A stretch of DNA of 64,000 bases from Bacilli bacterium (lineage in GTDB: Bacteria; Bacillota_I; Bacilli_A; ML615J-28; CAG-698): assembly GCA_017962745.1 (NCBI GenBank), contig JAGCUR010000018.1:127088-191087 (forward strand), given 5' to 3'. Position 1 is the stretch's first letter. Each line of letters starts with the position of its first letter. Below are positions 43,582-52,130 of the stretch, piece by piece. Position numbers and translations under genes: made by a program. The notes under the pieces are model-generated. The model saw only the letters and a program-made list of their open reading frames with translations. It was not told where the DNA came from and did no database searches.

Positions 43582-45882
43582 ATGAAAAAATTTCCTAGAG
43601 TTATGAAGCGAATAATGATTTTCACTCTTTTCGCTACATTATTTGCTTCATTAGTTGTGTTTGGCTTTGGCGTCAAAGCTGCAAACATTGACATTAAAGG
43701 TGTTGACATTATTTATAGCAATCCTGGTGAGGACTGCTCAACACAAATTACTATTTCATGGCATGCAAAATCTAGGTATTCTACTTTAATTTATACATTA
43801 AAGAGCGACCCTACTTATGCCTTCGCTACTAGTATGCTAGTAACTGGTATTTATGATGAATCATCATTCTTCCACTATGATGTGGCAAAATTCTATAAAT
43901 GTACAGTTCCACTAAAGGATTTAGATCCTGATACTGAATACATTTATAAGATTAGATGTGATGACTATACATCTGAACAATACACATTTAGAACAGCTGG
44001 TGCATCAGAATTCACATTTGCTTACATGAGCGATATTCATGCAATTCCATATGATGACCTAGAACTAGGTATGACAGCTGTTAAGAAACTTAAAACTGTG
44101 CAAACATTATTAGAAAAAGCAGAAGATGTAAATGATACAAGACTTTCATTTATCATTACGACTGGGGACGAAACTTGGAGAGGTAGCCAATACTCTAACT
44201 GGCTAGAATGGAGTAAGACACAATTTACTTCTGCTCGTAAAGATTATTTATGGTTATCTTGCCCTGGTAACCACGAATACTATACGCAAACAACCAACTC
44301 AATTTGGAATTATTATCCAGATAAGTATTCATCTAACCCAAGTGCCATTTATGATGATCCAGAATATTTCTATAATACATATTTTAATTCGGTAAAAGCA
44401 GTACCAAAGAATGGTCCTGAAGGTATCCCATCAAGTTATTATACGCTTTATAATAATATTTTATTCATCTGTATCGATAGTATGCAAGTTGGTGACTACG
44501 GCAAACTTAACGAAACTCGTGCTTGGTTTGAAAGAGTAATGCAGAAGAACGAAGGTAAATACCAATACATTATCGTTTACCAACACTATCCATGGTATGA
44601 TTTCGTAACTGGCGAAGATAAATATGCTTATAGATGGCGTGATTTATTCGATAAATATGGTGTAGACTTAGCATTAAGTGGCCACATGCATGGCTATTTA
44701 AGAACTAAGACTTTATATGATGGTAAAGTTACAACTGAAGAAAAGAAAGGTACAGTTTATGTAGTATCACCTCAAATCGGTGATAGACCAAAAGTAACTT
44801 CAGGCGATCAAAACAAAAACTTAATCGCTTACCGTGAATCAACTAAAACTTGGACAGACTATTCTGCCATCTCTACAATCACAGTTACAAATGAAGGCCT
44901 AACTTATAAACTAATCGATGTAGATGGAAAAGTAAGAGATACATTTACAATTGAAGCAAGACGTGCATCAACTATTTCTGAAAGCCACAAAAATAGCATC
45001 ATTGATAGCCTGACTTTCTCTGGAACACCTGATTCAATCGTTTGTGATTTCAAGAGTTCTTATAGCTTATATGTAAAGAACATTAAAGTAGAAGCAGGTG
45101 GCAAGAGCGGCGAAGTTAACCCATCTGAACAAAAAACAGGCTACGTTGCTGCTAAAGGTTTAGCTAATAACACATTATATGATGCAAAAGTAACAATTAC
45201 ATTCATCGATGATTCTACATACACTACTTCAGCTAGCGTAGTAACTAGCGGTACATTTGGTTTAATCAATAACTTAAAAGCAAATGTAGTTAACGATAAG
45301 ATGAATATCAACTGGAATGTAAGCGATGCAAGCTTAGTAGATCAATATAAGATTTATATTAACGATGAGCTTGAAGGTACATCGACTACTAACTCTTATG
45401 AAATTGATAAGAGTAGAGTAGAATTTAGCACTAAATATACTCTAGAAGCTTACAAAGATAATAAGTTATTATTCCATAAAGATTTCTATTACGGCGTATA
45501 TGGTGATGTTAACCTAGATGGTAGCATTAACGATAACGACGTTAAGAAATTAATTGAATTAATCTTTGCGGGCTACGTTTTTAATAGCGGAGCTATTAAA
45601 TTACTAGATAACAATAACGATGGAATCGTTGATATCGGCGATGCATTTAAGATTTTAGCTTACCAAAATGAACGCGTTGAACATTTAGTTTATAACGAAT
45701 ATGAAGTTACATTTGTTGGCTACTCAGGTAATGCTTTAGCTAGAGTAAAAGTGCTAGAAGGTGAAGATGCGGTAGCCCCTGAAGCACCAACTATTACTGG
45801 TTATACATTTGTTGGCTGGAGCGTATCTTATACAAACGTAAATTCTAACTTAATCGTTAGAGCAATTTATGAGGCTAATTAG
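43582..45882 (+). CDS. Secreted purple-acid-phosphatase-like metallophosphoesterase with dockerin and Listeria-Bacteroides repeat domains
   Basis: Signal peptide, FN3-like N-domain and metallophosphatase motifs (GDETW, GNHEY, GHMHGY). A dockerin duplicated Ca-binding segment (DVNLDGSINDNDVKKL / LDNNNDGIVDIGDAFKIL) and a C-terminal flg_new repeat (YEVTFVGYSG...ITGYTFVGW) are also present. Confidence 0.7.
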   Translation: MKKFPRVMKRIMIFTLFATLFASLVVFGFGVKAANIDIKGVDIIYSNPGEDCSTQITISWHAKSRYSTLIYTLKSDPTYAFATSMLVTGIYDESSFFHYDVAKFYKCTVPLKDLDPDTEYIYKIRCDDYTSEQYTFRTAGASEFTFAYMSDIHAIPYDDLELGMTAVKKLKTVQTLLEKAEDVNDTRLSFIITTGDETWRGSQYSNWLEWSKTQFTSARKDYLWLSCPGNHEYYTQTTNSIWNYYPDKYSSNPSAIYDDPEYFYNTYFNSVKAVPKNGPEGIPSSYYTLYNNILFICIDSMQVGDYGKLNETRAWFERVMQKNEGKYQYIIVYQHYPWYDFVTGEDKYAYRWRDLFDKYGVDLALSGHMHGYLRTKTLYDGKVTTEEKKGTVYVVSPQIGDRPKVTSGDQNKNLIAYRESTKTWTDYSAISTITVTNEGLTYKLIDVDGKVRDTFTIEARRASTISESHKNSIIDSLTFSGTPDSIVCDFKSSYSLYVKNIKVEAGGKSGEVNPSEQKTGYVAAKGLANNTLYDAKVTITFIDDSTYTTSASVVTSGTFGLINNLKANVVNDKMNINWNVSDASLVDQYKIYINDELEGTSTTNSYEIDKSRVEFSTKYTLEAYKDNKLLFHKDFYYGVYGDVNLDGSINDNDVKKLIELIFAGYVFNSGAIKLLDNNNDGIVDIGDAFKILAYQNERVEHLVYNEYEVTFVGYSGNALARVKVLEGEDAVAPEAPTITGYTFVGWSVSYTNVNSNLIVRAIYEAN

Positions 45883-45891
45883 GAGGATAAC

Positions 45892-46668
45892 ATGAGAAAA
45901 ATTAAACTTGTTCTTGTTTTTATTCTAGCTATTTTTAGTCTTGGCTTAATTGCTTGTGGAGAAGGTGGAAATACTGAAATTGATTGGAGTAAAAAGACCG
46001 TAAGTGGTATTTCTCCAGTTAAAGAAACATTTTATGCTAAATACGAATATGATGAATTTGAACTATCAATGCTTAAGATTCATGTAGAATATACTGATGG
46101 AACTAGTAGAGATATACCAGTTACTGAAGAAATGCTAGATGAAAAAGATATTCGTAAACTTAAAACAGTTGGTAAACCACGTATTACAATTTATTATGAT
46201 GCATTTGATCTACAAATGTCAGTAAATATCATTGACTCAAGTAGACTTGATGAAAACTTAAACCCAGATGGTGAATATGCTTGTGTAATTAAAGCCATCC
46301 GTGATCAAGAAGCAGGTATCATCAACTTCATATTTGAAGGTAATGAAAACTATGATGTTTGTGCAATGAGCTTTGCATATAGCTATGATAATAGCTTAAT
46401 GCAACTTAGCAATGCTAAGATGAATGAAGCATTAACTGGTATTGGTGATGTGCAAGTAGTAGATGGTAAAGTAATGTTTGCTTACACTGAATCAGGGACT
46501 GCTTTAGAAGGCGAAATTATATTATTTACAGTTAACTATACTGGTGACTTCCGTAACAGTAAGTTAGGAGCAGCAGAAGACTTTAATAATGTAGTTTACC
46601 TTGCAAACTTCACTGATTTCTCTACTACCCTTGCTGATAATGTTTTATATCATGCATCAGTAAAATAA
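45892..46668 (+). CDS. Lipoprotein (possible cohesin-like partner of the upstream dockerin protein)
   Basis: Lipobox LGLIAC, 258 aa, beta-rich C-terminal 140 aa. Starts 9 bp after the dockerin protein with a strong RBS. Confidence 0.5.
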   Translation: MRKIKLVLVFILAIFSLGLIACGEGGNTEIDWSKKTVSGISPVKETFYAKYEYDEFELSMLKIHVEYTDGTSRDIPVTEEMLDEKDIRKLKTVGKPRITIYYDAFDLQMSVNIIDSSRLDENLNPDGEYACVIKAIRDQEAGIINFIFEGNENYDVCAMSFAYSYDNSLMQLSNAKMNEALTGIGDVQVVDGKVMFAYTESGTALEGEIILFTVNYTGDFRNSKLGAAEDFNNVVYLANFTDFSTTLADNVLYHASVK

Positions 46669-46685
46669 ATACTTATAAAAAAATA

Positions 46686-46730
46686 AAGTTCTAGATTATG
46701 AAAGTCTTTCATAATTTAGAACTTTTTTAT
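46686..46730 (+). terminator. Rho-independent terminator (20-bp stem)
   Basis: aaagttctagattatgaaag / ctttcataatttagaacttt near-perfect hairpin followed by T6. Confidence 0.7.
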
Positions 46731-46764
46731 ATAATGTATATAGTTAGTTTTAAATGGAGTATTT

Positions 46765-47631
46765 ATGGAAAAAGTATTGATCATTTATTTTAGTGGTATG
46801 GGTAATACTAAACTACTTGCTAATATGGCTAAGGATGAATTCCTCGCTAAAGGCTATGATACAAAAGTGGTAGATGTATGTAGCGATGAAGTGGTTGAAA
46901 TTAATGACTATAACTATCTAGTTGTAGCATACCCAATATATGCCTTTAATGCTCCAGGGCCTATTATTAGTTATATTAAGAAATTTAATAAAATTAATAA
47001 TGATCTTAAATGTTTAATTTTAAAAGATTCCGGTGAATACCTTTTCTGGAACAATGCTTCAAGTTTGCAACTTACTAGCATTTTAAAGAGAAAAGGAATA
47101 AAGATATTTAGTGAATATCATTATTTATTACCTTATTCATTTGTTTTTAGACATACAGACTATATGGCATATAAAATGCTATATACGCTTAAATATTTAC
47201 TGCCTTTAGATATTGATGATTTTCTAGGCGGTAAATATCATAAGCTTGATAGGTTTTTCTTAGATAGGCCCTTTAGTTTTGTTTTTAGAATCCAACGCTT
47301 TGGGGGTAGACTTAACGGTAGATTTTATAAAGTAGATCAAGAAAAGTGTATTAAGTGCAATAAATGCATTAATAACTGTCCAGCTAATAACATTAAAATC
47401 AAAGATGATAAATTTATTTTTGGTGGAAAATGCTTAATGTGTCAACGTTGCGTTGTAAACTGTCCGCATACTGCTATTAAAGCCGGCTTCTTTAAAAGGT
47501 GGATGGTTGGTGGCGCTTACTCGTTTAGAGAAACAACAGAGTTTGAAGTAGAAAAGAAACCAAAATACTGTGCAAAAAGTTATAAGAAATATTTTGAAGA
47601 AAGTGTAAAGCGAGGTAACAAAATTGTCTAA
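46765..47631 (+). CDS. Flavodoxin-like domain fused to a 2x[4Fe-4S] ferredoxin domain (EFR1-type)
   Basis: N-terminal flavodoxin fold (KVLIIYFSGMGNTK). C-terminal CIKCNKCINNCP and CLMCQRCVVNCP ferredoxin motifs. Confidence 0.65.
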   Translation: MEKVLIIYFSGMGNTKLLANMAKDEFLAKGYDTKVVDVCSDEVVEINDYNYLVVAYPIYAFNAPGPIISYIKKFNKINNDLKCLILKDSGEYLFWNNASSLQLTSILKRKGIKIFSEYHYLLPYSFVFRHTDYMAYKMLYTLKYLLPLDIDDFLGGKYHKLDRFFLDRPFSFVFRIQRFGGRLNGRFYKVDQEKCIKCNKCINNCPANNIKIKDDKFIFGGKCLMCQRCVVNCPHTAIKAGFFKRWMVGGAYSFRETTEFEVEKKPKYCAKSYKKYFEESVKRGNKIV

Positions 47632-48067
47632 ATTATTTATTTATTATTCAAATACTGGTAGTGGTGATGCAGTAGCAAGCAAATTAGCTACTTTAGGATA
47701 TGAAATAAGAAAAGTTACTCCTAAAAAAGATTTACCAAAAGCATTCTTTTTTAAAGTAATGAGCGGTGGCTTTTTAGCTAGTCTAAATGCTAAAGCTAAA
47801 CTTAACGAATTTGATGCAAATATTGAAGGTTACGAAGAAGTTGTAATTGGTTCCCCTATTTGGAATGGAAGACTTTCTACACCTATTAATACAGTATTAT
47901 CTCTTTTAGATTTAAATGGTAAAAATGTATCATTTATACTGTATGCAGGAAGTGGTGCTGCCAAGGCTGCACCAAAACAAATCAAAAAATTTGTAAGTGA
48001 AGCTAAGATTACTATCCTGAAAGAACCTAAGAAATATCCAGAAGAATTAGAAAAGATTGGTGAATAA
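47624..48067 (+). CDS. Short-chain flavodoxin-like protein (TTG start)
   Basis: 147 aa, flavodoxin-type N-terminus (KLFIYYSNTGSGDAVASKLA). TTG start with GAGGT RBS, overlapping the previous gene by 8 bp. Confidence 0.55.
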   Translation: MSKLFIYYSNTGSGDAVASKLATLGYEIRKVTPKKDLPKAFFFKVMSGGFLASLNAKAKLNEFDANIEGYEEVVIGSPIWNGRLSTPINTVLSLLDLNGKNVSFILYAGSGAAKAAPKQIKKFVSEAKITILKEPKKYPEELEKIGE

Positions 48068-49438
48068 ATGTATAAAAAAGTAAAAGATTATATCGAAACA
48101 ATAGATGGCATATCTCATACTACCTTTGATCCGCACGGACCAGGAGTAGTAAGGATTCACCTAGTACCACCCGAAAAGATTAAACTCGGTTTAGCTTGGA
48201 CCATTATTTTAAATGGTCAAGATGTAATACCTATTACCTTTGGTTGGGCAGTATTACTGCGTGAATTTATTAATGCTGTTAACAAAAGAAGTGGCGTAGC
48301 TTTAGAAGATGAAGAAATTGCCCATATCATTAATGAAGCAATTGAAGCTGCTAGTAAAGTATTTGATAAGACTAACAAAAAGACCCTTCGTGCCGATTTA
48401 AAACAAATCGTAGAAACATTAACTAAGATTGCAAGAAAAGAAAAGATATCTGAGATAATAGAATATGCACCTTTATCTACATATGCTAAATACATGGCTG
48501 CTCCGCACAGAATGGATTTAATGATTTCCGCCATGAGCAAAAATGGGGCTTGGCATTGTAATCAAAAATGTTTAAATTGTTATGCGGCAGGGCAGATTCA
48601 AGCAAATGTAGAAGAAATTGATACTGAAAGTTGGAAGAAAATTATTGATAAATGCAAAGCTTCCATGATTCCTCAATTAACATTTACTGGTGGAGAGCCT
48701 ACACTAAGATCAGATTTAGTAGAACTTGTTAATTATTCACAGTGGTTTGTAACCCGCCTTAATACTAATGGGCAGCTATTATCTAAAGAGTTATGTGCTA
48801 AGTTATATGAAGCAAGCCTTGATAGTGTTCAAGTAACACTATATTCACATAAAAAAGAAATTCATAACTTTCTAGTTGGCGCCGATGGTTTTGATAAAAC
48901 CATTGAGGGCATTAAAAATGCGATTGATGCTAGGTTAAATGTTAGCATCAATACACCATTATGTGATCTAAATAAAGATTATGTGGATATGGTTAAATAT
49001 GCTCATGAAGTGCTAGGTGTTAATTATTTCACATGTTCTGGTTTAATTTTAACTGGTAATGCTACGGATACTGCTAATTCTAGATTATCTAAAGCAGAAA
49101 TCTTAAATGTTTTAAAAGAAGCTAAAGCGTATACTGATTCAAATAATTGCGAATTATCATTTACATCGCCTGGTTGGATTGATAGCGATATTTTAAGAAA
49201 GATGAAAATGATGGTGCCTTCTTGTGGAGCATGTTCATCAAATATGGCTATTACGCCAAATGGCATGGTAGTACCTTGCCAAAGTTGGCTTTCAGATACC
49301 CCACTTGGTAACATGCTAACTGATGAATGGAAAAAGATTTGGAATAGTAGAAGATGTGTAAAGTTAAGAAAAGAAAATTCTAAAGCTAATGATTTATGTC
49401 CATTAAGCGGTAGAATTGAGGGTGAAGTAAATGAGTAA
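48068..49438 (+). CDS. Radical SAM enzyme with C-terminal SPASM/twitch domain and a 160-aa N-terminal extension
   Basis: CNQKCLNCY (CX3CX2C) at aa about 164 and a GGEPTL SAM motif. The C-terminal Cys-rich region (CSGLIL...SCGACSS...VPCQSW...CVKL...CPLSG) is typical of SPASM auxiliary clusters. Confidence 0.75.
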   Translation: MYKKVKDYIETIDGISHTTFDPHGPGVVRIHLVPPEKIKLGLAWTIILNGQDVIPITFGWAVLLREFINAVNKRSGVALEDEEIAHIINEAIEAASKVFDKTNKKTLRADLKQIVETLTKIARKEKISEIIEYAPLSTYAKYMAAPHRMDLMISAMSKNGAWHCNQKCLNCYAAGQIQANVEEIDTESWKKIIDKCKASMIPQLTFTGGEPTLRSDLVELVNYSQWFVTRLNTNGQLLSKELCAKLYEASLDSVQVTLYSHKKEIHNFLVGADGFDKTIEGIKNAIDARLNVSINTPLCDLNKDYVDMVKYAHEVLGVNYFTCSGLILTGNATDTANSRLSKAEILNVLKEAKAYTDSNNCELSFTSPGWIDSDILRKMKMMVPSCGACSSNMAITPNGMVVPCQSWLSDTPLGNMLTDEWKKIWNSRRCVKLRKENSKANDLCPLSGRIEGEVNE

Positions 49439-50471
49439 TATTAAGAAGTTATTGGTATTTATCATTCTTTCCTTAAGCTTAGTTTTTGCTTTCTCATTTA
49501 GTAAAGTTAAAGCATATAATGATTTAGATCATATTGAATTATATGAGATTAAAGTAACACCCGTTAAAGATGATGGTAGCCTAAATATTGAAATCCATAT
49601 TATTTGGGAAGTATTAGATAGTTATACTGATGGTCCATTAGAATGGATTAAAGTAGGTATACCTAATTACCATGCGAAGGACATTAAAGCATTAAGTGGT
49701 GGAATTAGAAAGATAAAGTATTATTCAGATAGTGGATCATACATTAGAATTGATTTTTCTAATAGCCATTATGAAGGTGAAAAGATTGATATTCGCTTTA
49801 GTTATAATCAATCATACATGTATCATCTAAATGAAGAATATGTGGTTTATGATTATCATCCTGGTTGGTTTGATGATATCAAAGTAGATATGTGTAATCT
49901 TTATTGGGCTAAAGATGGTGTAGATCAAATAGCAGATGGCATAACTACTGCAAGTGGTGTAACATTTAGCGAAGAAGATGGTTATTATAAACTATCTAGT
50001 CCACTAAATTATGGTGGAACGATAAAAATGAGGCTTCGCTATGCTAATAATTACTTTAGTGAACTTGATCCAAAGAAAGAATATACTGATAAATATGTTA
50101 AACCAGTAACTATTATTTTAATTGTAGCAGCAATTGTTACCTTTTTAGCAATAGTAATTGCTCTATATTACTATCAAAAGAATAATCAAGATCCATATAT
50201 GAATGAAAGAGGATTTTGTACAGGTTATTACCATTGGTATTTATTTGGTAGACCTCACCATTATTATGGAAAAACAGTTAATAGTAAAGGTGCAAGAATC
50301 GTAAATCCATCTTCTAGCAGTGGAAGCCATGGTGGATTTAGCGGTGGTGGCGGCTGTGCTTGTGCATGTGCTTGCGCATGCGCTGGTGGCGGAAGAGCTG
50401 GATGCTCGAAAAAAGACTTTTACAATACTAACTTGTCAAGCGAAAAAGTATTAAAAGAGTTAGAAAAGTAA
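49431..50471 (+). CDS. DUF2207-like membrane protein with cytoplasmic Gly/Cys-Ala repeat tail
   Basis: Signal peptide, extracytoplasmic beta-rich domain and one TM helix. Cytoplasmic tail ...SSSSGSHGGFSGGGGCACACACACAGGGRAGCS. Overlaps the rSAM gene by 8 bp. Confidence 0.5.
   Translation: MSNIKKLLVFIILSLSLVFAFSFSKVKAYNDLDHIELYEIKVTPVKDDGSLNIEIHIIWEVLDSYTDGPLEWIKVGIPNYHAKDIKALSGGIRKIKYYSDSGSYIRIDFSNSHYEGEKIDIRFSYNQSYMYHLNEEYVVYDYHPGWFDDIKVDMCNLYWAKDGVDQIADGITTASGVTFSEEDGYYKLSSPLNYGGTIKMRLRYANNYFSELDPKKEYTDKYVKPVTIILIVAAIVTFLAIVIALYYYQKNNQDPYMNERGFCTGYYHWYLFGRPHHYYGKTVNSKGARIVNPSSSSGSHGGFSGGGGCACACACACAGGGRAGCSKKDFYNTNLSSEKVLKELEK
50355..50384 (+). repeat. Hexanucleotide (TGY-GCW)x5 in-frame microsatellite encoding (Cys-Ala)5
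   Basis: The sequence tgtgcttgtgcatgtgcttgcgcatgcgct lies within the 49431 ORF. Confidence 0.8.
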
Positions 50472-50488
50472 AGAATTATTCTTAAATG

Positions 50489-50513
50489 AGGAGCCCTAGG
50501 CTCCTTTTTTTTT
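50489..50513 (+). terminator. Rho-independent terminator
   Basis: aggagcc-ctag-ggctcct hairpin followed by T9. Confidence 0.7.
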
Positions 50514-50682
50514 GAAAACGAAAGAAAATGTTTTCTTATTATTGTTTATATCTTTTTAACTAAACATATATTTAGTAGTTCTTATATCCATTATTTATTA
50601 ATTAATAGTTTATAAACACTAAACATATATTTTCATAACCTCTATTTTTACTATGTTATAATTATTAAATATTATTAATATA

Positions 50683-50857
50683 TTTCCAGAAAGATATAGA
50701 TTTCAAATGAATGTGGATGAAATAGAATATTTATCGAGGTCAAAAAATTTGACCTCGATAATGCAAACAACTGGTATAAAGGGTGGCCGTGTTTATTTGC
50801 CATATGCTTTTACTGAACAAGGTATTTATATGTTGAAGAGAGGGGAAGAGAATAATG
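50683..50857 (+). pseudogene. 5'-truncated ORF6N-domain gene copy (first unit of tandem array)
   Basis: Translates as FPERYRFQ...GGRVYLPYAFTEQGIYMLKRGEENNG*, matching the C-terminal half of the next two ORF6N genes. No upstream start. Confidence 0.55.
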
Positions 50858-51199
50858 GATAATAAAGATATAGAAATCATAGAATTAAACAATGAATCAA
50901 TTGAGAAAATGATTTATGTTATTAGGGGCAAGAAAGTAATGCTAGATTTTGATTTAGCTAGAATATATGGTTTTGACACTAAAAGATTAAATGAGCAAGT
51001 AAAAAGAAATATAAGTAAGTTTCCAGAAAGATATAGGTTTCAGCTGACATTATACGAAGTGGATTATTTGGTGAGGTCGCAAAATGCGACCTCACGAATT
51101 TGGCCAATGACTAATGAAGGTGGCAGAAGATATTTGCCATATGCATTTACAGAACAAGGTATTTATATGTTGAAGAGAGGAGAAGAGAATAATGGATAA
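50855..51199 (+). CDS. ORF6N-domain protein (short copy, ORF6N domain only)
   Basis: VMLDFDLARIYG...NEQVKRN..FPERYRF...RYLPYAFTEQG is typical of the ORF6N/KilA-N-like family. About 97% DNA identity with the start of the next gene over about 170 bp. Confidence 0.6.
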   Translation: MDNKDIEIIELNNESIEKMIYVIRGKKVMLDFDLARIYGFDTKRLNEQVKRNISKFPERYRFQLTLYEVDYLVRSQNATSRIWPMTNEGGRRYLPYAFTEQGIYMLKRGEENNG

Positions 51200-52130
51200 T
51201 AAAGAAATAGAAATCATAGAATTAAACAATGAATCAATTGAGAAAATGATTTATGTTATTAGAGACAAGAAAGTAATGCTAGATTTTGATTTAGCTAGAA
51301 TATATGGATATGAAACAAGAAGATTTAATGAACAAGTAAAAAGAAATATTGATAAATTTCCAGAACGATATCGATTTAAGTTGAACCAATTCGAGATTGA
51401 TTCAATCTTGAAGTCGCATTTTGCGACATCAAGTTGGGGCGGCACTAGAAAGCTTCCTTATGCATTCACAGAACAAGGTATTTATATGTTAATGACTGTA
51501 TTAAAAGGAGATTTAGCCACTAAACAATCTATTGCATTAATTGATGCTTTTAAAAATATGAAAGATTATATTATTGAAAACAATGGATTACTATTAAATA
51601 CTAATACTTATATAGAATCAAAGTTTGCTTCATATGATAAAAGATTTGAAGTAATTGAAAATAAAATAGATATAGTTATGGATAACTTTATAGATCCATC
51701 TAGTTATAAACATTATTTAATACTAAATGGTCAAAGGATTGAATCAGATATTGCTTGTCAATCTATTTATAAATTAGCTAAATATTCTTTAATAATAATT
51801 GATAATTATATAGATATAAAAACATTACAGTTATTAAAAGTATGTAATAAAGATATAAATATAATAATTATAAGTGATAATGTATTAAGACTAGGTAATA
51901 GTTTTATTAATGATTTTAAAAAAGATACTAATATTAATATAATAATAAAACCAAATAATAATTTATTTCATGATAGATATATTATTATAGACTATGATAA
52001 TAATGATAATTATCAAATATATCATTGTGGATCATCTAGTAAAGATGGAGGGAATAAGATATCTACTATTATGAAAATAGAAGATAAGATGATGTATAAA
52101 AAGATCATTGATAAAATGATAATTATATAA
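51192..52130 (+). CDS. ORF6N-domain protein with C-terminal domain shared with the RhuM protein at 12217 (HxR-x4-D PLD-like motif)
   Basis: N-terminal ORF6N domain. The C-terminal 140 aa, LIIIDNYID...HDRYIIIDYDNNDNYQIYHCGSSSKDGG, are homologous to the RhuM gene tail. Extremely AT-rich 3' half. Confidence 0.65.
   Translation: MDNKEIEIIELNNESIEKMIYVIRDKKVMLDFDLARIYGYETRRFNEQVKRNIDKFPERYRFKLNQFEIDSILKSHFATSSWGGTRKLPYAFTEQGIYMLMTVLKGDLATKQSIALIDAFKNMKDYIIENNGLLLNTNTYIESKFASYDKRFEVIENKIDIVMDNFIDPSSYKHYLILNGQRIESDIACQSIYKLAKYSLIIIDNYIDIKTLQLLKVCNKDINIIIISDNVLRLGNSFINDFKKDTNINIIIKPNNNLFHDRYIIIDYDNNDNYQIYHCGSSSKDGGNKISTIMKIEDKMMYKKIIDKMIII

Follow-up and report, generated by a model that had tools for sequence, protein, structure and literature searches.

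A radical SAM enzyme gene and the gene of a membrane protein with a Cys-Ala tail form a conserved pair in Firmicutes and may encode an enzyme and its substrate

Radical S-adenosylmethionine (rSAM) enzymes that carry a SPASM domain and act on Cys-rich peptides are a known theme, exemplified by the sactipeptides, the ranthipeptides and SCIFF, and the rSAM/SPASM substrates known to us are short free peptides or small soluble subunits. A four-gene locus in a 64-kb stretch of DNA from an uncultured Bacilli bacterium (contig JAGCUR010000018.1, assembly GCA_017962745.1; hereafter the window) raises the question of whether such an enzyme may act on the tail of a membrane protein. The locus encodes an EFR1-type flavodoxin/ferredoxin protein, a small flavodoxin, an rSAM enzyme, and a membrane protein that ends in ...GGFSGGGGCACACACACAGGGRAGCSKKDFY..., a stretch with five Cys-Ala pairs of the form (Cys-Ala)5-GGGRAGCS. 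On record, the rSAM enzyme is annotated as 'radical SAM protein' and the membrane protein as 'hypothetical protein'. A first-pass annotation, made from the DNA letters, had proposed a post-translational modification system with the Cys-Ala tail as the candidate substrate, and its main argument was the presence of the two flavodoxins beside the enzyme. The four open reading frames (ORFs) that it described, with their positions, tight packing, two 8-bp overlaps and the TTG start of the second gene, were all borne out (Table 1).

To define what is conserved at this locus, we scanned genomes with the rSAM enzyme, keeping one genome per species (80 loci), and performed the reciprocal scan with the tail motif (80 metagenome loci, of which 53 were informative, with at least 1.5 kb upstream). 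In 74 of the 80 genome loci the tail motif follows in the same orientation, at 828-1272 nt from the stop codon of the rSAM gene, and the remaining six loci end 570-1228 nt after the rSAM gene, too early to show the motif. In the reverse direction, the rSAM gene adjoins the tail-motif gene in all 53 informative metagenome loci, upstream of it in 52 and downstream of it in one, L135 (4001-6188), where the membrane protein gene precedes the rSAM gene. The supposition that the rSAM enzyme and the tailed protein belong together thus holds up, the adjacency being strict in both search directions. The rSAM enzymes of the genome loci are 48-55% identical to that of the window, except for one Bacilli relative (L001) at 86%. 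By their record titles, these loci derive from Lachnospiraceae, Oscillospiraceae (Gemmiger, Faecalibacterium, Subdoligranulum, Vescimonas, Oscillibacter), Ruminococcus and Bacilli genome bins; a few of the bins are labeled Bacteroidaceae or Coriobacteriaceae, which may be binning errors. When all ORFs of the 80 genome loci were clustered, no third gene family was found to be conserved around the pair, and the candidates for a third gene (PrfC, HPF, a SpoVK-like AAA ATPase, a MurJ-like protein and an S4-domain protein) were rejected as lineage-specific synteny. The two flavodoxins were likewise rejected as part of the conserved unit. They stand beside the pair only where the rSAM enzyme is at least 74% identical (L001, L081-L084 and L090), and they stay joined to it there even where the outer neighbors differ, with a homologue of the small flavodoxin at the equivalent position in L001, L081, L083 and L090; they are absent from the other loci, 79 from genomes and 79 from metagenomes (rSAM identity ≤59%). 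Of the gene quartet, therefore, the rSAM enzyme and the membrane protein are kept in relatives, the latter being present in 74 of 74 informative rSAM loci, while the flavodoxins are mostly absent and occur in close relatives only, a lineage-specific add-on. The conserved unit is the rSAM gene and the membrane protein gene, the last two genes of the four.

The core of the membrane protein's tail, CACACAGGGRAGC(S/T)xK, hardly changes at all, even where the remainder of the sequence drops to ~26-30% identity. All 120 membrane protein homologues listed, which are 36-88% identical overall, carry CACACA..GRAGC. In an alignment of 58 sequences (mean column identity 45%), C313-A-C-A-C-A-G-G-G-R-A-G-C325, K328 and D329 are invariant; the Cys-Ala or Cys-Ala-Ser-Ser units further upstream vary in number, while the last three Cys-Ala pairs and GGGRAGC are constant. 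The 16-codon core was found in 154 copies that comprise 133 distinct DNA versions and use every synonymous codon, including all six Arg codons, and selection therefore works at the level of the peptide, so that a DNA-repeat artefact was rejected; in the window, the motif occurs once in the six frames. The Ala residues between the Cys residues are as invariant as the Cys residues themselves, which would not be expected of a plain metal-binding CxCxC site. Four divergent loci from environmental metagenomes (L164-L167, rSAM 30-43% identical) still carry CACACAGGG(R/G/A)AGCSRK, and their KDFY segment is replaced by RKLEH, RKTLH, RKPEH and RKGFD. The truly invariant core is therefore CACACAGGGxAGCSxK.

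The motif could also have belonged to a short peptide of its own, and the first-pass annotation had considered an unannotated precursor peptide nearby. A six-frame scan of 46.0-51.3 kb for short Cys-rich ORFs (15-90 amino acids (aa), at least 3 Cys) returned only a 39-aa antisense ORF inside the rSAM gene, and we discarded this idea. A database search with the tail alone returned just entries of 43-83 aa. They are explained by fragmented genes, by chimeras with adapter sequence (MCIRDS...) or by a gene that is split in one species, and they give no evidence of a family of free motif peptides. In that species (L087 3238-4171, L088 and L089), a one-base frame change just before the Cys motif splits the membrane protein gene into a 265-aa ORF and an overlapping 56-aa ORF that contains the whole tail motif. 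The split is seen in 12 contigs from different samples and could mark a pseudogene or a programmed frameshift, or else a substrate that naturally stands alone.

The rSAM enzyme passes the Pfam model PF04055 (Radical_SAM; 69.1 bits vs the cutoff of 29.5) and its barrel superposes on many rSAM structures. The CX3CX2C motif that had been placed near residue 164 is confirmed, with C164, C168 and C171 invariant in 69 of 69 sequences. The C-terminal extension passes PF13186 (SPASM; 42.5 bits vs 21.5, residues 386-444). Of the Cys residues in the C-terminal domain, C386, C404 and C444 never vary, C323 is kept by 67 of the 69 sequences, and C389 and C430 are variable (67% and 52% conserved). Over the whole enzyme, C243, C299 and C323 are conserved at 97-99%. 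A canonical two-cluster SPASM domain holds two auxiliary [4Fe-4S] clusters with seven Cys in the pattern CX9-15GX4C...CX2CX5CX3C...C, and its CX2CX5CX3C element was not found in the 69 sequences of the family. In its Cys pattern the C-terminal domain seems more akin to the one-cluster Twitch-like type that SkfB has. The SPASM match predicted for the C-terminus stands, but the Cys set is a reduced one. In the classification with hidden Markov models (HMMs), the Radical_SAM and SPASM models are passed, but none of the 54 NCBIfam matches comes near its cutoff (the best, NirJ2, scores 106.7 vs 500; TIGR04403, the SkfB model, 60.8 vs 300), and none of the named maturase families (SCIFF, SkfB, PqqE, MftC, WgkB, ScmE/F, ACGX, GeoRSP, StsB, KxxxW) is reached. 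A defense-system reading was rejected, PADLOC giving only a generic rSAM-core match to pVip (prokaryotic viperin; 51 bits, residues 163-304) and no match for the membrane protein or the small flavodoxin.

The AlphaFold2 (AF2) model of the rSAM enzyme (predicted local distance difference test score (pLDDT) 87, predicted template modeling score 0.87) comprises an N-terminal domain, the barrel and a C-terminal domain. In a Foldseek search, the closest structures were SkfB and SuiB, which align colinearly over 436-464 columns and cover nearly all 456 residues, whereas the alignment spans 311-370 columns for enzymes that have no fused recognition domain; the best PDB sequence match is also SkfB (E = 2e-11). 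These alignments show that the rSAM enzyme belongs structurally with the peptide maturases and that its N-terminal domain is colinear with theirs. This domain, modeled as one helix, four beta strands and three helices, is as conserved as the catalytic core (mean column identity 64% vs 65%) and was found only at the N-terminus of this family, with 277 representatives among 1.84 billion proteins; the full-length proteins that contain it are mostly 434-468 aa long, with one of 602 aa. The recognition element (RRE) of peptides that are made by ribosomes and modified after translation (RiPPs) is a PqqD-like winged helix, in which beta strands are followed by three helices, and it binds the substrate; maturases of the SkfB, SuiB and CteB type have it at the N-terminus. 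The N-terminal domain of the rSAM enzyme is a candidate RRE-like substrate-recognition domain.

For the membrane protein, the AF2 model (pLDDT 79) predicts two hydrophobic helices that flank a beta-sandwich ectodomain, followed by a disordered tail (Table 1), and this predicted topology would place the tail in the cytoplasm. Neither DUF2207 nor any other Pfam or NCBIfam model matches the protein (E up to 10), and the DUF2207-like label it had been given has to be withdrawn. Among the 58 homologues, only two match DUF2207 (PF09972), at E 0.008-0.025 and ~15 bits vs the cutoff of 24.4, and hhalign against E. coli YciQ, a DUF2207 protein, gives E 0.005 with a probability of 7%. Membership was therefore rejected, and the ectodomain may be distantly related to DUF2207. 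PF25184 ('YxzE-like putative bacteriocin') matches five of the 58 homologues at 19 bits vs the cutoff of 40, covers the second transmembrane segment (TM2) and a Tyr/Gly-rich juxtamembrane stretch but not the Cys motif, and was not used. We noticed that long Lachnospiraceae homologues (410-470 aa, e.g. L112 769-1946) have a zinc-ribbon-like CxxC...CxxC insert in the predicted cytoplasmic segment between TM2 and the Cys-Ala tail. The Gemmiger formicilis homologue P0434 (L024) bears the UniRef label 'SipW-cognate class signal peptide', which hints at cleavage of the N-terminal signal by a signal peptidase of the SipW type; the membrane protein of the window gave no match to the SipW-cognate signal-peptide model.

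We propose that the rSAM enzyme and the membrane protein are an enzyme-substrate pair in which the tail is modified, most likely through Cys thioether crosslinks, and we assign this reading a probability of roughly 0.6. The adjacency of the genes, the invariance of the motif, the predicted disorder of the tail, and the full-length alignment of the enzyme with SkfB and SuiB all support the tail as the candidate substrate. The membrane protein would be inserted so that the beta-sandwich faces outward and the disordered tail of ~95 residues reaches into the cytoplasm, where the rSAM enzyme would bind the tail, probably via the RRE-like domain, and use the 5'-deoxyadenosyl radical together with the C-terminal auxiliary Fe-S cluster to modify CACACAGGGRAGC(S/T)xK(D/N) covalently. 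Cys-derived thioether crosslinking of the sactipeptide or ranthipeptide type would be the most likely chemistry, turning the flexible end of the tail into a small rigid crosslinked module that is still attached to the membrane protein. This choice of chemistry is the weakest step of the proposal, and taken by itself we hold it to be possible but somewhat doubtful. Thioethers are favored because the closest enzymes make such links and the Cys residues are invariant, because the donor-acceptor motif CX3D of PapB (PMC9413430) is matched by C325-x3-D329 (or Asn), and because RumC1 has proven sactionine acceptors in Ala, Arg, Lys and Asn (PMC6760926). In the window the segment is C325-S-K-K-D329, which fits CX3D, and the Oscillospiraceae versions read C-S-A-K-N.

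Several observations weigh against this proposal. The proposed modification of the tail is supported by comparative evidence, and four conserved Cys residues with the spacing CxCxCx7C could simply bind a metal or an Fe-S cluster. The top HMM scores of the rSAM enzyme, all far below cutoff, are to enzymes of small molecules (NirJ2, AhbD and MoaA), only four C-terminal Cys residues are conserved without CX2CX5CX3C, and the N-terminal domain has no sequence match in Pfam (E up to 10, including PqqD) or in a PDB profile search. The partner and the motif are also not entirely constant. In one locus (L158 4001-5000) the rSAM gene lies beside a membrane protein gene without the tail, in which the ectodomain is fused to an unrelated C-terminus lacking TM2; the Arg of the motif is replaced by Gly or Ala in L164-L166 (GGGGAGC, GGGAAGC); and the CX3D acceptor position is occupied by H, G, T or L in L005, L157/L167, L165 and L164, respectively. 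Some of these points would suit an explanation in which the tail stays unmodified, its four Cys residues bind a metal or Fe-S cluster, and the rSAM enzyme acts on another substrate such as a small molecule or a lipid, with the tail as a partner that anchors it to the membrane, gives or receives a cluster, or serves as the scaffold for cluster building or repair. Pairs of rSAM enzymes and scaffolds do exist (NifB; HydE/G with HydF), the lipid-modifying rSAM enzyme GDGT-MAS is among the PDB sequence matches, membrane-anchored Cys-rich tails are known (PF12669, FeoB-associated, which faintly matches TM2 in one homologue), and no protease or exporter is conserved beside the pair. We nevertheless consider an unmodified, metal- or cluster-binding tail unlikely, since Ala, Gly and Arg among and after the Cys residues are as invariant as the Cys residues, which is unusual for a simple ligand set, the conserved N-terminal domain aligns with the recognition domains of SkfB and SuiB, and the scores to the small-molecule enzymes are 4-5 fold below the cutoffs.

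The resemblance of the rSAM enzyme to RiPP maturases, together with the separate 56-aa tail ORF of the split gene in 12 contigs of one species, would also be in line with the membrane protein being an unusually long RiPP precursor, the modified tail of which is cleaved off as a bacteriocin or a signal. The core peptides of natural products normally vary, whereas the tail motif is invariant across Bacilli and Clostridia; the pair is not accompanied by a conserved protease, ABC exporter or immunity gene; and the tail is predicted to be cytoplasmic, while the remaining 250 residues, comprising the ectodomain and the transmembrane part, are themselves conserved. A precursor of this kind is therefore very improbable. 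Still less credence is due to the idea that the two genes have no functional link, the adjacency being a matter of chance or local synteny and the tail, as the first-pass annotation had considered, a Cys variant of a DUF2207-like Gly-rich tail. A Gly-rich stretch does precede the motif in many homologues, the faint similarity to the DUF2207 N-terminal domain (2/58 homologues; 7% against YciQ) falls at the equivalent position, UniRef calls one Roseburia homologue DUF2207, and the proteins of both families begin with a beta-rich extracytoplasmic domain, are anchored in the membrane and are rich in Gly in the C-terminal region. However, YciQ is a protein of 631 aa with several transmembrane segments and a Cys-free Gly/Ala tail (GGGAGGG...W), its gene has yciO and rluB and no rSAM gene as neighbors, and the absence of a link is already refuted by an adjacency that holds in 74/74 and 53/53 informative loci while the outer neighbors all change, and by a motif that is invariant across 133 DNA versions.

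The four genes are located on the + strand and are packed tightly between two terminator-like hairpins. The 8-bp overlaps lie between the EFR1-type and small flavodoxin genes (47624-47631) and between the rSAM and membrane protein genes (49431-49438), and at the third junction the stop codon of the small flavodoxin abuts the start of the rSAM gene (TAAATG at 48065-48070). GAGG-type ribosome-binding sites are present at 47612-47615, 8-9 nt ahead of the TTG of the small flavodoxin, and at 49419-49425, ahead of the ATG of the membrane protein. From the two boundary hairpins and the tight junctions, the four genes therefore look like one transcription unit, and translation of the rSAM and membrane protein genes is likely coupled because of the 8-bp overlap and the upstream ribosome-binding site; the hairpins and the promoter-like site are consensus matches only, and such matches are no commoner than in shuffled sequence. 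Upstream of the operon, at 43582-46668, lie genes for a 766-aa secreted purple-acid-phosphatase-like protein with a Listeria-Bacteroides repeat and, after it, for a 258-aa lipoprotein-like protein without a family match; the two are syntenic in the closest relatives only (L001 and L081). Downstream, at 50660-52130, a 337-nt unit is repeated in tandem ~2.5 times (86% identity over 300 nt), giving two truncated ORFs (50707-50862 and 50855-51199) and then a full 312-aa ORF6N-domain gene (51192-52130), which matches the PADLOC candidate defense family PDC-S05 over its whole length (329 bits).

Table 1 Features of the four-gene locus, in window coordinates unless residues are given
Feature	Position	Strand	Remarks
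Terminator-like hairpin 3' of the upstream gene	46685-46725	+	5' operon boundary
Promoter-like site TTCATA-16-TATAAT	46708-46735	+	Consensus match
EFR1-type flavodoxin/2x[4Fe-4S] protein	46765-47631	+	288 aa
Small flavodoxin	47624-48067	+	147 aa; TTG start
rSAM enzyme	48068-49438	+	456 aa
rSAM N-terminal domain (residues 1-145)	48068-48502	+	Proposed substrate-recognition domain, RRE-like
SAM-binding [4Fe-4S] motif C164-x3-C168-x2-C171	48557-48580	+	Invariant in 69/69
rSAM C-terminal auxiliary-cluster (SPASM/Twitch-like) domain	49034-49399	+	Conserved Cys; Pfam SPASM match
Membrane protein	49431-50471	+	346 aa
Membrane protein, signal peptide or TM1 (hydrophobic helix)	residues 2-28		AF2
Membrane protein, beta-sandwich ectodomain	residues 33-205		AF2, pLDDT >90
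Membrane protein, TM2	residues 225-251		AF2
Membrane protein, disordered tail	residues 260-333		AF2, pLDDT <50; short terminal helix after
Tail core motif (Cys-Ala)5-GGGRAGCSKKDFY (residues 309-331)	50355-50423	+	Proposed substrate site
Terminator-like hairpin GAGGAGCC-CTA-GGCTCCTT then T7	50488-50506	+	3' operon boundary

Both flavodoxin assignments of the first-pass annotation were confirmed. The EFR1-type protein passes NF038196 (EFR1 ferredoxin; 95.1 bits vs the cutoff of 75, residues 6-241) and has an N-terminal flavodoxin-like domain and two CxxCxxCxxxCP motifs at residues ~188-241; in Pfam it is also matched by Fer4 families and weakly by Flavodoxin_1. The small flavodoxin passes PF12682 (33.8 bits vs 24, residues 4-127), which places it in the Flavodoxin_4 family. 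In this Bacilli lineage, the two proteins would have been added at the front of the operon and would supply low-potential electrons for the reductive cleavage of SAM; they are plausibly the electron donors to the cluster of the rSAM enzyme and candidates for its physiological reductants. A full-text literature search on EFR1 found nothing.

The rSAM/tailed membrane protein pair was also not described in the full-text literature that we searched, including surveys of RRE-linked rSAM enzymes, most subscription journals being outside the search; the nearest published precursor is a different CxCxCx4GxGxG peptide for StsB (PMC10288494). The pair is undescribed by the curated families as well, and the public protein names are uninformative. 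We tentatively suggest, at somewhat less than even odds, a hitherto undescribed kind of rSAM modification, by which a dedicated enzyme would permanently alter the cytoplasmic tail of a membrane protein at the invariant motif; the outcome would be a crosslinked module, a protein-derived cofactor or a metal site of an unusual kind that works with the ectodomain. If this is true, the pair would be a new protein family pair with a new class of rSAM substrate and possibly a new crosslink chemistry on Cys-Ala-Cys-Ala-Cys-Ala, and the modified tail could act together with the extracellular domain in, for example, transmembrane signaling, redox or metal handling. The motif is frozen across two Firmicutes classes, which points to a housekeeping structural or cofactor role and not to an antibiotic. 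Abundant commensals of the human gut and of the rumen carry the pair, and such a modification would be at work in many of the Firmicutes that dominate the gut (Faecalibacterium, Gemmiger, Roseburia, Lachnospiraceae, Oscillospiraceae and uncultured Bacilli).

Among the systems that we compared, none has a membrane protein tail as the substrate or has this motif. SCIFF with its maturase CteB (Tte1186 type) resembles the pair in having a Cys-rich substrate that is conserved across Clostridia, but SCIFF is a free peptide of ~45 aa with an unrelated motif, whereas here the motif ends a 346-aa membrane protein, and the rSAM enzyme of the window lacks the full seven-Cys SPASM set and reaches no NCBIfam maturase cutoff. 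SkfB has the closest fold, a reduced Cys set and a Twitch-type auxiliary domain; however, it is only 21-22% identical to the window enzyme, its family model is not reached, and SkfA is a secreted, cleaved and cyclized peptide from the multi-gene skf operon. SuiB, like SkfB, modifies peptides and bears a substrate-recognition domain fused at its N-terminus. PapB/freyrasin and RumMc/RumC resemble the proposed reaction in their repeated thioether crosslinks from Cys donors, the tail having C-x3-D (or, in some homologues, C-x3-N) like PapB and the acceptor residue types of RumC1, and we know of no described sactipeptide or ranthipeptide with the tail's Cys spacing of i, i+2, i+4 with invariant Ala. 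The anaerobic sulfatase-maturating enzymes (anSMEs), which generate formylglycine, differ from the window enzyme in having no N-terminal domain, aligning in Foldseek over ~323-370 columns compared with 436-464 for SkfB and SuiB, and the tail, CACACAGGGRAGCS, does not contain the C/S-x-P/A-x-R motif of their sulfatase substrates. Finally, QhpD is an rSAM/SPASM enzyme that crosslinks Cys residues of QhpC, the gamma subunit of quinohemoprotein amine dehydrogenase. Small, soluble and periplasmic, QhpC is exported once it has been modified and carries a quinone cofactor, with neither a membrane anchor nor a Cys-Ala repeat, but it resembles the proposed tail in that the modified protein stays a functional subunit and does not become a natural product.

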